From Escherichia phage VB-EcoM-WM, in the sequence record PQ014731.1: 64,000 nt of DNA; one strand, 5' to 3'. Of this stretch, positions 9,512 through 13,656 are shown piece after piece. The translations under genes and the position numbers were made by a program. The notes beneath the pieces were generated by a model. That model did no database searches and had not been told where the DNA came from. It was given only the letters and a program-made list of their open reading frames with translations. How positions within the stretch are numbered: position 1 is the first letter of the stretch; the number at the start of each line of letters is the position of its first letter.

Positions 9512-12500
9512 TGCCAATTGCAATGATTGATAACATCGTTGCTTCTGCAAGATCTTCAAGTTATGACTGGAACGCATCCAAGGCAGCTCTGGCTGACAGC
9601 CTGAACACTGTTACCACCAGAACTCTGGATAAGATTTTTGAGGGTAACAAATCTTACAGAAGTCAGCAAGATAGACAAAAGCTTCTCAGATCTTCTGCTG
9701 CACCCTGCTCTGTAGTGTATGGAAAGACACGCACATCTGGATTGCTTGCGTTTTTGGAGCAGGATAGAGACAAAACCCTCCATTGTGCTATTGTTCTTGC
9801 CAATCACCCTCTGGAAGGTATAGAAGATATACTTATCGATGGTAATCCTATTTCCTCGTATGGAGATTTGGTATCGTGGGAGTTACATAACGACAGAAAA
9901 ACGGCTGATCCTTTCATGGGGACACACTGCCCATCGTGGTCACCAGACATGATAGGTAGAGGGATCAGTTGGCTACGTGCCAGCTTCAAGTTCGACCCTA
10001 ACAAGTTTCCTTTTGGGTTGCCAAACGTTACACTCGTTAAGGTTGGTAAAAAATGCTATGATCCTCGTATCAGTAAAGAGGTGTACACCAATAACGCATC
10101 CTTGGTGATCCTGGACTATTTAAGAACGTACCTTAAATGTCCTGACGAAACCATCAACTGGGAGTCCTTTAAGGAGGCTGCCAACATATGCGACGAGGCG
10201 GTAAAAAACGCTGACGGAACCAGTGAGCGACGTTACACCATTAACGGTGAGTTTGACATGGATGAGGCCCCAGCAAGTATTATGGCAGAAATGCTGAAAG
10301 CTTGCGGTGCAGACCTTAGTTATGTTGCTGGTAAGTATGGTTTGCTGGTTGGTGCATACTATGGTCCGGCAACAATGACATTGAGTGAGGACTGTGTTTG
10401 TGGTGAGGTTAAGATCTATCCGGAAGCCTCATTTGACAAAAGATCTAACACAATAACTGGCAGATTCACTAGTCCGACCAAAGGGTATTCTGAAACAGAT
10501 TTCCCATCAGTGTTTGTCCCAGAGTGGATAGAGAAGGATGGAGAAAGAAAGATAATCGATATAGACTATCGCTTTGTTACCAGTCCTTATCAAGCTCAAC
10601 GTGTTTCTGCAATCTTCTTAAGACGTGCTAGAGCTGGCAGGATTATTGAAGTCACCTGCAATATGCGAGGTTTTAAATTTAAGCCTGGCCGTTACGTTAC
10701 AATGAATCTCCCAAGTATTGGTATAGTAGGCCAAGAAATGAGGGTTCTTGAATGGGAGTTCACCAAAAAGGGTGGTGTCAAGGTAAAACTTCGTCAAGAT
10801 GCTAAAGAGTGGAATGATGCCACAGGGCAACTTCCGGATTCTGGTGATGTAGATATTCCGATATCTCCATCTGGTGTAGCTCAACCGCAAAACTTCAGAT
10901 ACTCCGTCCTCCAAGCTGGGGAAATAACTCACGGTGTTCTGGCTTGGGACAACGTTGGGACTTACGCTCAAAATATTGTGCAGGTAAGAAAGAACGGAGA
11001 GATTGTTTGGACAGCACAGACAGTTGAGCAGTTTGTCCGAGTAGAAGGCTTGACCAAAGGGTCATACACAGCAACCGTGGTTGCAACATCTTATAAAGGT
11101 GGTGTATCTCCAGAAGCGTACTGCGAGTTTAACATTCAGGCACCTGAAGCTCCTGTTTCTGTAGAGGTTAAGCAGGGATACTTTGCTATCACCTTGATTC
11201 CACACAGCAGGGATTTAGCAAGTGTAAGCACCCAGTATGACTTTTGGACATCTGGTATGACAAGGTTGCCCGACACCAGCGATGCAACCGTTACTTCAAA
11301 CGCCACCCGTATGGGTGTTGGTTCAACTTGGACATCCGAAGGTCTGCAGAACGATAAGGTTTATTATTGGTATATTCGAACCACAAACGCTTTTGGTAGC
11401 TCTCAGTTTGTAGAGTGTGCTGCACGCTGCTATACCTCCATTGAGGATTTGATGCCTCAGATAGATGCTGAATTCAAAAAGACAGAAACTTATAAAGAGT
11501 TGATGAGCACTTTGGATTCCTCTATTGAAGAGGTTGAAAATCGTGTCACAGAACTTAACAGGTACATGGATGGTAGAGTTGACGAGGCTTTTGACCACAT
11601 GGAAGGTGAGTTCTCTAGAGTAGACAAGCTGTATGCTCAGTTGGGAGATAGGGTTGGAATATTCATCCAAGAAACCCACGACAACTTCCAGGACGTTAAT
11701 GGAACGCTTACCACTCTAGATCAGAAACTGGTAGCCACTCAGAACAAGTTTGCAGATGATCTTTCTAAAGAAAGTGGCAAGCTTGCTTCTCTAATCCAGA
11801 CCACTAACAAAGCTACAACCGATCTGTTAAATCAGAAAACTGAAGCTTTGGACGAGAAGATTGTTTCAACCAGGGGTGAGTTGGAAGATGCTTTAGCGCA
11901 GGAAAGCTCTGAGCTGAACTCCCTGATTGTATCAACCAATAAAACGACTACAGATCTCCTTAATCGGAAAACCGAGGCTTTAGACAATAAGCTGACGGCA
12001 ACGAAAGGTGAGTTGACCAACAATCTGCAGAATGAGAGTGCTAAACTATCGTCCTTGATTGAGTCAACCAACAAATCCACCACTGATCTTCTTAATAAGA
12101 AAACAGAGGCGTTGGATGAAAAACTGGTTGCTGCACAGGGCGAGTTGACTGAGCAGATCGGAGATGTTGAAAAAGGCTATCTGGCTGGTGATAAGAGCCT
12201 AGAGGGCAAGTTGAATACTCAAAGATCTGAGTTGGATGCGAGCATTCTGAGCACTAACCAGGCCACTGTGGACTTGCTGAACAGAACTTCTGAGACTCTT
12301 GACCAGAAGATTAGCCAGACCAACGCCACAGTGTCCAAAAACTACACCACGCTTGATGGTAAGATAAACACCGCCAAGTCTGATCTTAATACGTTGATTT
12401 CTACCACCAACAAGGCCACAACTGACCTGTTGAATCAGAAAACGGCAGCTTTGACTGAGCAGTTAACCACTGCTAAAGGGCAGATTACAACCAACACCAA

Positions 12501-13656
12501 TAATATTACTGGGTTGGACAATAAGCTGACTCAGACGAAGAAAGACTTGTCTGCGAATATTTCTGAAACTAATAACGCCACTGTTGATCTGATTAACGGC
12601 ACAGCGTCAGCTATTCGTCAAGAACTTGCTGTTGCTAAGCAGGAGATCATTGATGGTGTTGGCGATGTGTCCGAGATCAGGGCTGCAGTAGCTACAACAG
12701 CTAAGGCTGTGACCGACTTAGAGGGTAAAGTAAATGCTCAGTGGGGTACAAAAATACAGGTAGACTCCGCAGGGAATAAATATGTTGCAGGTATCCAGTT
12801 GGGGATGGAAGGGTCTGGGGGCCAAGTTCAATCCTACTTCATGGTTAGTGCAAACAATTTTGCGGTATACAATCCTGGCAATGGAACAGCAACCCTTGCT
12901 TTCGCAATCAAGAACAACCAAGCGTTCTTGAAAGACGCTTTTATAGAGAATGGCACGATCTCCTCTGCCAAGATCGCACAAGAAATTTCGTCAAACAACT
13001 ACGATGGCAACGGGTACCATAAATACGGTTGGTATATTAACAAGAACGGGCACGCCCAATTTATGGATGTGTGGGTGAAAGGCAACATCAACGCCAGTTC
13101 TGGTAACTTCACAGGGGCAGTTAACGCCACTAGTGGTACCTTCCGTGGGGATGTTTATGCCAATAATGGTAGCTTTAGAGGCACCATAGATGCAACCGGA
13201 GGTACCTTCCGTGGTCGTGTAGAAGCTTCTGTTATCCGCGCTAACCAGTTCGAAGGTGCAATTGTTGCACACAGGACTTACGGGGATTGTGCTCCAGTAT
13301 ATAACTCCCAGCAAAGGGTTTGCCGTTGGAGGTGGAGATACGTAGATAACGTTTCAGGTCAGGGTAAGAACGTAACATTCTTCTTTAAACTGAATGGTAC
13401 TCTTGCCAGCTCCCAACTGAATGCATGGATAGCTGGTCATCAGATCCTTGCTGGCAAGAAGTATTTTAACGACAACAACGGCATGTGTGCGGTAGGGATA
13501 ACAGGTCTGGGTGAACAAACTATAGACATTGTTATCGAGATTTACACACCGTGGTCAACGTCGAGCGTGACAGGTGTCACAATCTCCTGTCCTACTGTGA
13601 TAGTAAGTCGTTCAAACTCTAGCTTCCAGGGACCTTGGAACGAGTCTCACGACTAA
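9511..13656 (+). CDS. host specificity protein J-like central tail fiber
   Basis: 1381 aa; segments IQAPEAPVSVEVKQGYFAITLIPHS ... YYWYIRTTNAFGSSQFVE and KYVAGIQLGMEGSGG...FAIKNNQAFLKDAFIENGTISSAKI parallel conserved blocks of lambda gpJ as recalled from memory. Confidence 0.8.
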   Translation: MPIAMIDNIVASARSSSYDWNASKAALADSLNTVTTRTLDKIFEGNKSYRSQQDRQKLLRSSAAPCSVVYGKTRTSGLLAFLEQDRDKTLHCAIVLANHPLEGIEDILIDGNPISSYGDLVSWELHNDRKTADPFMGTHCPSWSPDMIGRGISWLRASFKFDPNKFPFGLPNVTLVKVGKKCYDPRISKEVYTNNASLVILDYLRTYLKCPDETINWESFKEAANICDEAVKNADGTSERRYTINGEFDMDEAPASIMAEMLKACGADLSYVAGKYGLLVGAYYGPATMTLSEDCVCGEVKIYPEASFDKRSNTITGRFTSPTKGYSETDFPSVFVPEWIEKDGERKIIDIDYRFVTSPYQAQRVSAIFLRRARAGRIIEVTCNMRGFKFKPGRYVTMNLPSIGIVGQEMRVLEWEFTKKGGVKVKLRQDAKEWNDATGQLPDSGDVDIPISPSGVAQPQNFRYSVLQAGEITHGVLAWDNVGTYAQNIVQVRKNGEIVWTAQTVEQFVRVEGLTKGSYTATVVATSYKGGVSPEAYCEFNIQAPEAPVSVEVKQGYFAITLIPHSRDLASVSTQYDFWTSGMTRLPDTSDATVTSNATRMGVGSTWTSEGLQNDKVYYWYIRTTNAFGSSQFVECAARCYTSIEDLMPQIDAEFKKTETYKELMSTLDSSIEEVENRVTELNRYMDGRVDEAFDHMEGEFSRVDKLYAQLGDRVGIFIQETHDNFQDVNGTLTTLDQKLVATQNKFADDLSKESGKLASLIQTTNKATTDLLNQKTEALDEKIVSTRGELEDALAQESSELNSLIVSTNKTTTDLLNRKTEALDNKLTATKGELTNNLQNESAKLSSLIESTNKSTTDLLNKKTEALDEKLVAAQGELTEQIGDVEKGYLAGDKSLEGKLNTQRSELDASILSTNQATVDLLNRTSETLDQKISQTNATVSKNYTTLDGKINTAKSDLNTLISTTNKATTDLLNQKTAALTEQLTTAKGQITTNTNNITGLDNKLTQTKKDLSANISETNNATVDLINGTASAIRQELAVAKQEIIDGVGDVSEIRAAVATTAKAVTDLEGKVNAQWGTKIQVDSAGNKYVAGIQLGMEGSGGQVQSYFMVSANNFAVYNPGNGTATLAFAIKNNQAFLKDAFIENGTISSAKIAQEISSNNYDGNGYHKYGWYINKNGHAQFMDVWVKGNINASSGNFTGAVNATSGTFRGDVYANNGSFRGTIDATGGTFRGRVEASVIRANQFEGAIVAHRTYGDCAPVYNSQQRVCRWRWRYVDNVSGQGKNVTFFFKLNGTLASSQLNAWIAGHQILAGKKYFNDNNGMCAVGITGLGEQTIDIVIEIYTPWSTSSVTGVTISCPTVIVSRSNSSFQGPWNESHD
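11755..12660 (+). repeat. in-frame tandem coiled-coil repeat array (about 6 units of 42-60 aa)
   Basis: Repeated SLIxTTNKATTDLLNQKTEALDEKL units, visible as recurring DNA such as accaacaaagctacaaccgatctgttaaatcagaaaac. Confidence 0.7.

Follow-up and report, generated by a model that had tools for sequence, protein, structure and literature searches.

gp37 of phage rV5, a protein of 1279 amino acids (aa) found in virions by mass spectrometry (PMC3606486), and its Vequintavirus orthologues (exemplified by those of the BASEL phages Bas49–Bas59; RBPseg class TC5) are the closest described relatives of a long J-like fibre encoded by Escherichia phage VB-EcoM-WM. This phage, a Vequintavirus (i.e., an rV5-like myovirus of E. 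coli), is represented by 64,000 nucleotides (nt) of record PQ014731.1, hereafter the window, to which all positions refer. Its fibre is orthologous to rV5 gp37 and syntenic with it; at the DNA level, rV5-type orthologues are 92–100% identical to it in the N-terminal 690 aa and in the tail-tip domain. The difference resides in the helical shaft between these parts: VB-EcoM-WM carries a rare long allele with six full repeat units (12 of ~114 records) where rV5 has four, and the shaft cassettes of VB-EcoM-WM and rV5-type phages are 68–78% identical across ~1 kb.

More distant counterparts are known from siphoviruses and pyocins. The gpJ of siphovirus 9g (gp68; Queuovirinae, Seurat-type) is ~50% identical in the N-terminal 650 aa and in the tail-tip domain, and the genes preceding it are homologous. 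In contrast to the Vequintavirus protein, the linker from immunoglobulin-like (Ig-like) to tail-tip domains measures ~89 aa in 9g, shows a heptad-like periodicity of 3.54 and holds no detectable copy of the repeat unit; moreover, 9g is a non-contractile phage in which J forms the tail tip. Lambda gpJ (8iyk, 8xcg, 8xcj) shares the Ig_J_second and Phage_Tail_Tip domains, and its central fibre is the best fold match. The Ig-like region aligns with residues 666–844 of lambda J in 8iyk; there the Ig-like match ends at 844 and the tail-tip match starts at 845, whereas a shaft of ~400 aa occupies this place in the J-like protein, and the C-terminal receptor-binding domain of lambda gpJ is unrelated. 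The central fibres of F-type pyocins (F2, PDB 25vf; F7, PMC12874032) are J-like as well and carry a long three-stranded shaft directly upstream of the beta-prism or tail-tip part, sequence similarity reaching ~100 aa into the shaft. The F2-pyocin shaft docks side fibres at a Gly kink, and that of F7 refolds to a beta-prism. Pyocin shafts are Ala-rich, whereas the Vequintavirus shaft is rich in Thr and Asn and made up of a repeated unit of its own that has been found in Vequintavirus alone.

Streptococcal M proteins, the stalks of trimeric autotransporters, and T4 fibritin are repeat-built coiled-coil rods whose length varies with the number of units. The Vequintavirus shaft resembles them in its register-neutral units, in the change of length by in-frame gain or loss, and in its tolerance of recombination inside the rod. 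The repeats of M proteins hardly differ in DNA and often change in copy number; in the Vequintavirus shaft, by contrast, the DNA repeats are saturated and change is rare. Taken together, the comparisons set out below make it likely that the array forms the shaft of a trimeric, hendecad-type coiled-coil fibre acting as a rigid spacer, the length of which would change by the exchange of whole cassettes and, rarely, by in-register deletion.

Repeat units

About six imperfect in-frame repeats of roughly 126–180 nt had been proposed for this region in the initial annotation, and their existence is confirmed both by direct repeats in register and by a hidden Markov model (HMM) of the unit. The limits of the six clear units are now placed at 11782–12708 instead of 11755–12660. 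A direct-repeat search yields a five-copy in-register family with starts at 11800, 11932, 12064, 12250, and 12403, i.e., at spacings of 132, 132, 186, and 153 nt, each divisible by three; the copies are 60–80% identical to the reference copy and all lie inside the forward-strand open reading frame (ORF) at 9511–13656. At the protein level, six units begin at aa 758, 802, 846, 908, 959, and 1013, corresponding to in-frame spacings of 132/132/186/153/162 nt from 11782. An HMM built from units 1–3 alone recovers units 4, 5, and 6 with independent E values of 2e-9, 6e-15, and 7e-6, and it also matches a half unit at aa 735–756 (E 1e-4), indicating a seventh, degenerate unit at aa 714–757. Within the window, the unit HMM finds no further ORF, and the possibility of a second gene with the unit was dismissed, the additional tblastn places being off-register self-matches. 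Tandem Repeats Finder reports no array in this region because the DNA copies are too diverged.

The units share 42–69% of their nucleotides, third-codon identity is 19–44%, and the longest word common to two units measures 14 nt. Synonymous sites between units are saturated, and at the DNA level the units are ancient. Despite this divergence, eight positions (L1, I5, T8, N9, T12, D14, L15, and N17) are invariant in the 13 units of three alleles, giving the motif TN..T.DL.N (T-N-x-x-T-x-D-L-x-N). The threonines sit at predicted core positions while the Asn and Asp residues appear to face the surface; a glycine at unit position 32 is conserved in addition. The sixth unit is kept in all four alleles described below and aligns with residues 987–1081 of the F2-pyocin fibre.

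Structure of the shaft

Pfam leaves ~400 aa between the Ig-like domains and Phage_Tail_Tip without a domain assignment. Residues 650–1075 contain no Pro, Trp, or Cys and are composed of 15% Thr, 13% Leu, and 9% Asn. Their hydrophobicity gives a single Fourier peak at 3.64 residues, coherent over 421 aa (power 6.6 versus 1.9 for the 99th percentile of shuffled sequences), whereas the canonical heptad period of 3.50 is not detected (power 0.03). A 44-aa unit comprises 12 core positions and corresponds to four hendecads. All four alleles keep a coherent periodicity of 3.63–3.64, also across the deletion junction of O157 typing phage 14. The lengths 44, 62, 51, 54, 88, 105, 18, 11, and 47 aa all deviate by at most 0.18 turn from a whole number of turns at 3.64; this was not counted as independent evidence because the units themselves define the 3.64 peak.

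Structure prediction leads to the same picture. AlphaFold2 (AF2) run on the single sequence places helices at aa 661–891, 896–1049, and 1053–1078, with the breaks falling at Gly-rich aa 892–895 and 1050–1052; run with a multiple sequence alignment (MSA) of 50 sequences, it predicts one helix over aa 883–1049 (predicted local distance difference test, pLDDT, 89–97), followed by the beta strands of the tail-tip domain. Both runs model monomers, and between them the helix ends at aa ~1049–1078 and the strands start at aa 1063–1082. The beta part of the model finds its best Foldseek matches in the lambda gpJ central fibre (8xcj, 8xci). Database matches of the shaft are weak and without exception helical proteins, several being coiled coils; they include the Apolipoprotein 11/22-mer family, SpiroCoCo, and the P22-type trimeric needle gp26 (4lin). 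The coiled-coil shaft predicted in the initial annotation is thus upheld by coherent periodicity, lack of proline, and AF2 helix, but with a period of 3.64 rather than the heptad value of 3.5.

Since helices of 150–230 residues only make sense in an oligomer, the shaft is read as a trimeric non-heptad (hendecad-type) coiled coil, and its parallel trimeric state is deduced from homologous J-like fibres and published multimer models. The lambda J structure 8iyk contains three chains per entry, and a three-stranded coiled-coil shaft has been solved for the homologous F2-pyocin central fibre (PMC13455828). Published AF2-multimer models assign the Vequintavirinae fibre to a class characterised by "large coiled-coil domains", in which the N-terminus resembles a central fibre and the C-terminus forms a beta-helix (PMC12143355).

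A stack of antiparallel helical hairpins—an apolipoprotein- or spectrin-like bundle with one hairpin per repeat—would be compatible with the sub-threshold Pfam matches to Apolipoprotein (32 bits versus a cut-off of 90) and Spectrin_7, with the conserved glycine at unit position 32, and with the AF2 runs insofar as monomer models cannot discriminate between the two arrangements. Yet the helices that AF2 predicts run without a break for 231 and 154 residues, and the hydrophobic residues keep one phase across all 421 positions. In solved homologues (lambda J 8iyk), the domains on either side of the shaft form parallel trimers, and both the published multimer models (PMC12143355) and the F2-pyocin structure (PMC13455828) are three-stranded coiled coils; a hairpin stack is therefore hardly credible.

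Helical spacers of variable length are the norm for the J-like family, as judged from a survey of 73 J-like proteins with Ig_J_second and Phage_Tail_Tip domains and from a remark by the authors of RBPseg, who describe J-type fibres with coiled coils "of varying lengths" (PMC12143355). The linker between the two domains ranges from 21 to ~2460 aa in the 73 proteins and is often free of proline, with a helical periodicity of 3.53–3.66. What appears to be particular to Vequintavirus is the repeated unit itself, which occurs in no other protein examined, together with the hendecad periodicity. In Queuovirinae-like metagenome contigs of ~60 kb (L016–L022), the stretch matching a query of aa 480–1381 measures 1032–1629 nt, the query residues covered differing from 2–701 up to 2–895; this suggests that Queuovirinae-like siphoviruses may also be polymorphic in shaft length.

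Length classes and their origin

The J-like gene matches 116 phage records at ≥80% DNA identity. Comparison of copy number in related phages, as proposed in the initial annotation, distinguishes four classes of length, carrying 6, 4, 3, and 2 full units, a partial unit being carried in addition and excluded from these counts. A coiled coil rises by ~0.148 nm per residue, and the rod lengths given here assume this rise and a shaft that is coiled coil throughout. Class A (VB-EcoM-WM, BP9, ECP32, NHEP1; 12 records) comprises proteins of 1381 aa with 426 helical residues and six full units, equivalent to ~63 nm. Class B (rV5, FV3, and most BASEL isolates; ~58 records) has 1279 aa, 324 helical residues, and four full units (~48 nm), and class C (I29, LL12, Murica, HeinrichReichert; ~44 records) has 1199 aa, 244 helical residues, and three full units (~36 nm). 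Class D consists of a single record, O157 typing phage 14, with 1174 aa, 219 helical residues, and two full units (~32 nm). Relative to class A, class B is shorter by 88 aa in register—the length of two 44-aa units, made up of R2 and half each of R1 and R3—and by 14 aa further upstream.

The main length classes appear to be old, diverged cassettes of ~1 kb that have been swapped by homologous recombination in conserved flanks. Exchange of cassettes among genomes is indicated because a diverged cassette lies between near-identical flanks and the modules of the gene assort separately. Compared with B-type RudolfGeigy, the gene of VB-EcoM-WM is 93–100% identical outside 11578–12594 and 54–79% identical inside; compared with A-type phages, the cassette is 97–100% and the flanks are 90–96% identical. 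The N-terminal 2 kb is nearest to C-, B-, and D-type phages (96%), A-type phages reaching 94%. The C-terminal 0.37 kb comes in alleles of its own that assort independently of shaft class. For example, the C-tip allele of VB-EcoM-WM (13291–13653) is shared at 97–99.5% identity by RudolfGeigy, I29, HeinrichReichert, and NHEP1; ECP32 and JEP1 share another allele (~85% identical to the first), and Aya, ime, and typing phage 14 differ again. Independent assortment of these C-tip alleles of ~120 aa is as expected for a receptor-binding tip. No source of the long cassette beyond Vequintavirus emerged from 50,697 phage records or from the best 150 of 1.84 billion representatives.

Typing phage 14 differs from the other classes in that it corresponds to the B allele minus exactly 315 nt (105 aa, two repeat periods), removed in register. 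It is 96.6% identical to the B allele overall and 99–100% identical beside the junction, which lies inside the 10-nt sequence AAGCCACTGT common to units 4 and 6. The junction occurs in one of 70 matching records, and its exact pattern is absent from IMG/VR, where three loci were available (one A and two B). A metagenome scan for variants returned one B locus and the Queuovirinae-like contigs, too few loci for frequencies. In a limited literature search, no published description of the repeat array, the length classes, or the typing phage 14 deletion was found.

The initial annotation had gone further in regarding the array as a possible hotspot of length variation, at which changes of repeat number by recombination would alter fibre length without breaking the frame. 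The second part of this proposal holds for typing phage 14, the deletion of which is in register, but does not describe the main classes, which are diverged cassettes exchanged through their flanks. An active hotspot—frequent recombination or slippage between tandem units, with standing variation of fibre length in the phage population—would account for the precise two-period deletion between units in typing phage 14, for the differences in copy number among relatives, and for the fact that every unit length is a register-neutral multiple of 3 nt. It is nevertheless unlikely. Given the low DNA identity and the short shared words between units, homologous unequal crossover has little to act on. 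Of the 119 B-type sequences listed among the best 120 database relatives, 117 have 1279 aa and the other two 1280 aa, the extra residue falling at alignment column 1253, outside the array; in class B, the variability of the shaft does not exceed that of the remaining protein. In the A-type cluster (129 sequences; 15 listed of the 40 members read), the listed full-length members all have 1381 aa, the two exceptions being a class-C sequence of 1199 aa and a sequence of 1139 aa that is probably a frameshifted form; the latter stems from a contig of 140,869 nt, equal in length to the A141/A142/A13b records. Classes A, B, and C differ at 22–44% of cassette bases, as befits old alleles rather than recent slippage, and the deletion remains a singleton among the 70 records. 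Length variation in this gene accordingly looks slow and mostly of the cassette type.

Among the records of the gene, 18 with MG0656xx accessions (e.g., H4–H9, H12) are labelled "Campylobacter phage", with Campylobacter jejuni as the host, and are 92–97% identical to the J-like gene over its full length; these labels or hosts look doubtful, or the samples mixed. In several of them, including A141/A142/A13b, the match spans 4145 nt, one base less than the 4146 nt of the gene.

Function of the shaft

The six to seven ancient units of 44–62 aa, each a whole number of helical turns, would build a parallel coiled coil joining an anchoring part—the J-type hub-like N-terminus and two Ig-like domains—to the beta-structured domains at the distal end, those of the tail tip and the C-terminus. 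The shaft would most likely be a rigid spacer whose length sets the reach of the distal tip, with the number of units serving as a length dial. Because every unit is register-neutral, loss or gain of whole units should be tolerated without breaking the reading frame or the helical register. New lengths would arise mainly by recombination in the conserved flanks, which swaps cassettes of ~1 kb independently of the N- and C-terminal modules, and rarely by in-register deletion between two units at a short microhomology, as in typing phage 14. We infer the spacer function, as well as any effect of length on fitness.

Several points weigh against this proposal. The invariant surface-facing polar residues of each unit are not obviously needed by a passive spacer. 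The structure predictions model a single chain, whereas the proposal supposes a parallel trimer. The record of typing phage 14 is labelled "partial genome", and its deletion has been seen once. Finally, a hub and a spike of the classical myovirus type are encoded in this genome as well, so the fibre may sit off the tail axis.

The polar residues bring up the idea of a docking rail, in which other fibre proteins attach to the motif of each unit or to the Gly-rich kinks and the number of units sets the number or position of the partners. The F2 pyocin offers a precedent: its alpha-helical shaft has a kink at G955 on which trimers of PyoF13 dock (PMC13455828). In the Vequintavirus protein, N9, D14, and N17 are invariant in every unit at positions that do not look like core, both AF2 helix breaks fall at Gly-rich sites, and an 18-aa Gly-rich segment of alleles A and B is deleted in C; in addition, Vequintaviruses possess about nine fibre-like proteins (PMC12143355). 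Against these observations, the conserved motif might just as well form a polar core of the shaft itself or a layer between helices, and cryo-electron microscopy of two Vequintavirinae located only three baseplate fibres and did not place the J-like protein (PMC12143355). Docking, which is compatible with a spacer function and does not exclude it, is rather unlikely.

A second idea draws on the F7 pyocin: the coiled coil beside a beta-prism seed could be a loaded spring that refolds to beta-prism on receptor binding, the number of units setting the size of the rearrangement. For central fibres of siphophages, a switch of this type has been predicted in 21 of 24 cases (PMC12874032). The F2-pyocin fibre aligns with the final ~100 aa of the shaft plus the tail-tip domain (E 1e-17), the coiled coil lies directly upstream of the beta-prism seed as in the F7 type, and an adjacent pair of reverse and forward SxSxxMxxLxS motifs, the length of which equals the 11-residue periodicity, occurs in the last unit (aa 1023–1041) of all alleles. 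However, this motif is not enriched in the shaft (5 versus 3.5 expected, P 0.26), nor does it fare better in the other alleles, and AF2 with the 50-sequence MSA gives a confident helix and no beta alternative, albeit in a monomer run, three chains being required for a prism. An energy source of this kind is superfluous in a phage whose contractile tail has a spike of its own, and lambda and T5 do without the switch according to the same authors (PMC12874032). Refolding is accordingly very improbable. More generally, a shaft that is more than a passive spacer, its invariant motif marking either repeated docking sites or a metastable refolding segment within a siphovirus-type tip module, is unlikely; the rigid spacer remains the preferred reading.

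Tail-tip module and gene layout

The coordinates of the gene, its domains and units, and the neighbouring genes are collected in Table 1. The J-like gene is 99.9% identical to that of phage BP9, annotated as "tip attachment protein J", and its product matches PHROG 31 "central tail fiber J" (E 6e-160). J-type Ig-like domains followed by Phage_Tail_Tip, together with a hub-type N-terminus, place it in the lambda-J-like family: Ig_J_second (PF24489) scores 106 bits (cut-off 27), while Ig_J (PF24421) reaches 24.5 bits and stays under its cut-off of 29. In the NCBIfam lambda_TipJ equivalog model, the protein scores 147 bits against a cut-off of 1950. By these sequence comparisons, it is a relative of lambda J and a different protein from lambda J itself. 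A second, short repeat lies 3′ of the tail-tip domain at 13090–13227, where four to five copies of a motif of ~10 aa, (S/T)G(N/T/S)F(T/R)G.V.A, occur within NASSGNFTGAVNATSGTFRGDVYANNGSFRGTIDATGGTFRGRVEA; it looks like the rungs of a beta-helix or beta-prism.

Table 1. Features of the J-like fibre gene and of the genes directly upstream (window positions)
Feature	Position	Strand	Extent and remarks	Basis
Dit-like gene	7943–8533	+		PHROG 1302 "distal tail protein"
9g-gp66-like gene	8520–9086	+		39% identity to 9g gp66
DUF6950/9g-gp67-like gene	9074–9511	+		Pfam DUF6950; 45% identity to 9g gp67
J-like fibre gene	9511–13656	+	1381 aa (4146 nt), single ORF	lambda-J-like
Hub-type N-terminal region	10237–10926	+	aa 243–472	phmmer match to T5 baseplate hub pb3 (8hqz, 7zhj), E 2e-4
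Two Ig-like/FN3-like domains (Ig_J, Ig_J_second)	10987–11466	+	aa 493–652	Pfam
Helical shaft	11458–12735	+	aa 650–1075, 426 aa; no proline	Fourier periodicity, AF2
Putative exchangeable allele cassette	11578–12594	+	56–78% identical between length classes, flanks 92–100%	Sliding identity, mismatch map
Degenerate unit R0	11650–11781	+	aa 714–757	HMM half-unit match; direct repeat D4, 11719–11750 versus 12115–12146
Unit R1	11782–11913	+	44 aa	Direct repeats, HMM
Unit R2	11914–12045	+	44 aa	Direct repeats
Unit R3	12046–12231	+	62 aa; 18-aa Gly-rich extension (aa 884–899)	AF2 helix break at the extension
Unit R4	12232–12384	+	51 aa	HMM, E 2e-9
Unit R5	12385–12546	+	54 aa	HMM, E 6e-15
Unit R6	12547–12708	+	54 aa; adjoins tail-tip domain	HMM, E 7e-6
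Phage_Tail_Tip (formerly DUF1983)	12685–13107	+	aa 1059–1199	Pfam PF09327, 133 bits (cut-off 22)
C-terminal tip module	13291–13653	+	Second mosaic segment	Pairwise identity matrix

A complete siphovirus-type tail-tip module, composed of Dit-like, gp66-like, DUF6950/gp67-like, and J-like genes and syntenic with Queuovirinae, thus occupies 7943–13656. The gp66, gp67, and J proteins are 39–50% identical to their 9g counterparts, the Dit-like protein being matched by PHROG family and annotation alone; PHROG 2048 is also matched among the three genes upstream of the J-like gene. Directly upstream of the region equivalent to the window, BP9 and RudolfGeigy encode a tape measure, a tube initiator (Pfam Dit_like), a Pam3-gp18-type plug, a hub, and a gpV/phi92-type spike; the baseplate hub of RudolfGeigy is a 334-aa protein by annotation and has no Pfam match. 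The segments compared were 73000–85900 of BP9 and 1–23000 of RudolfGeigy. In phi92, tube initiator, plug, hub, and spike proteins occupy the tail axis (PMC13450770). An on-axis central fibre had been the first assumption and was dropped after these hub and spike genes were found just upstream of the window. Because hub and spike are encoded in the same genome and are axial in phi92, the J-like fibre may be peripheral, as the BASEL annotation "lateral tail fiber" assumes.

Two further proteins of the window deserve mention. A fibre of 1270 aa (4031–7843) combines a TSP1/Gp66-type N-terminal domain with a C-terminal Peptidase_S74 intramolecular chaperone. A protein of 690 aa (15950–18022) matches the N-terminal and TIM-barrel domains of the "non-contractile tail sheath protein" (N4 gp65 type) and is the proposed NGR/ECA-binding fibre of these phages.

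Implications for Vequintavirus fibres

The protein is an ordinary member of an already known kind of fibre. If its shaft did dock partners or refold, the number of units would tune valency or stored energy, beyond reach alone. For the rigid spacer, interest lies in reach itself, fibre geometry being one of the few levers for engineering the host range of phages. Vequintaviruses offer a natural series of four shaft lengths (~63, 48, 36, and 32 nm) in proteins that are otherwise near-identical and have clear cassette boundaries, and this series constitutes a ready-made test of the role of fibre reach in adsorption through O-antigen or capsule. The authors of BASEL give a depth of ≤30 nm for the O-antigen (PMC11990801). 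The locus also illustrates that repeat arrays in fibre genes need not be unstable: the protein repeat has been conserved and the DNA repeat has decayed. The more interesting question concerns the role of a siphovirus-type Dit/J module in a myovirus that already has a hub and a spike.

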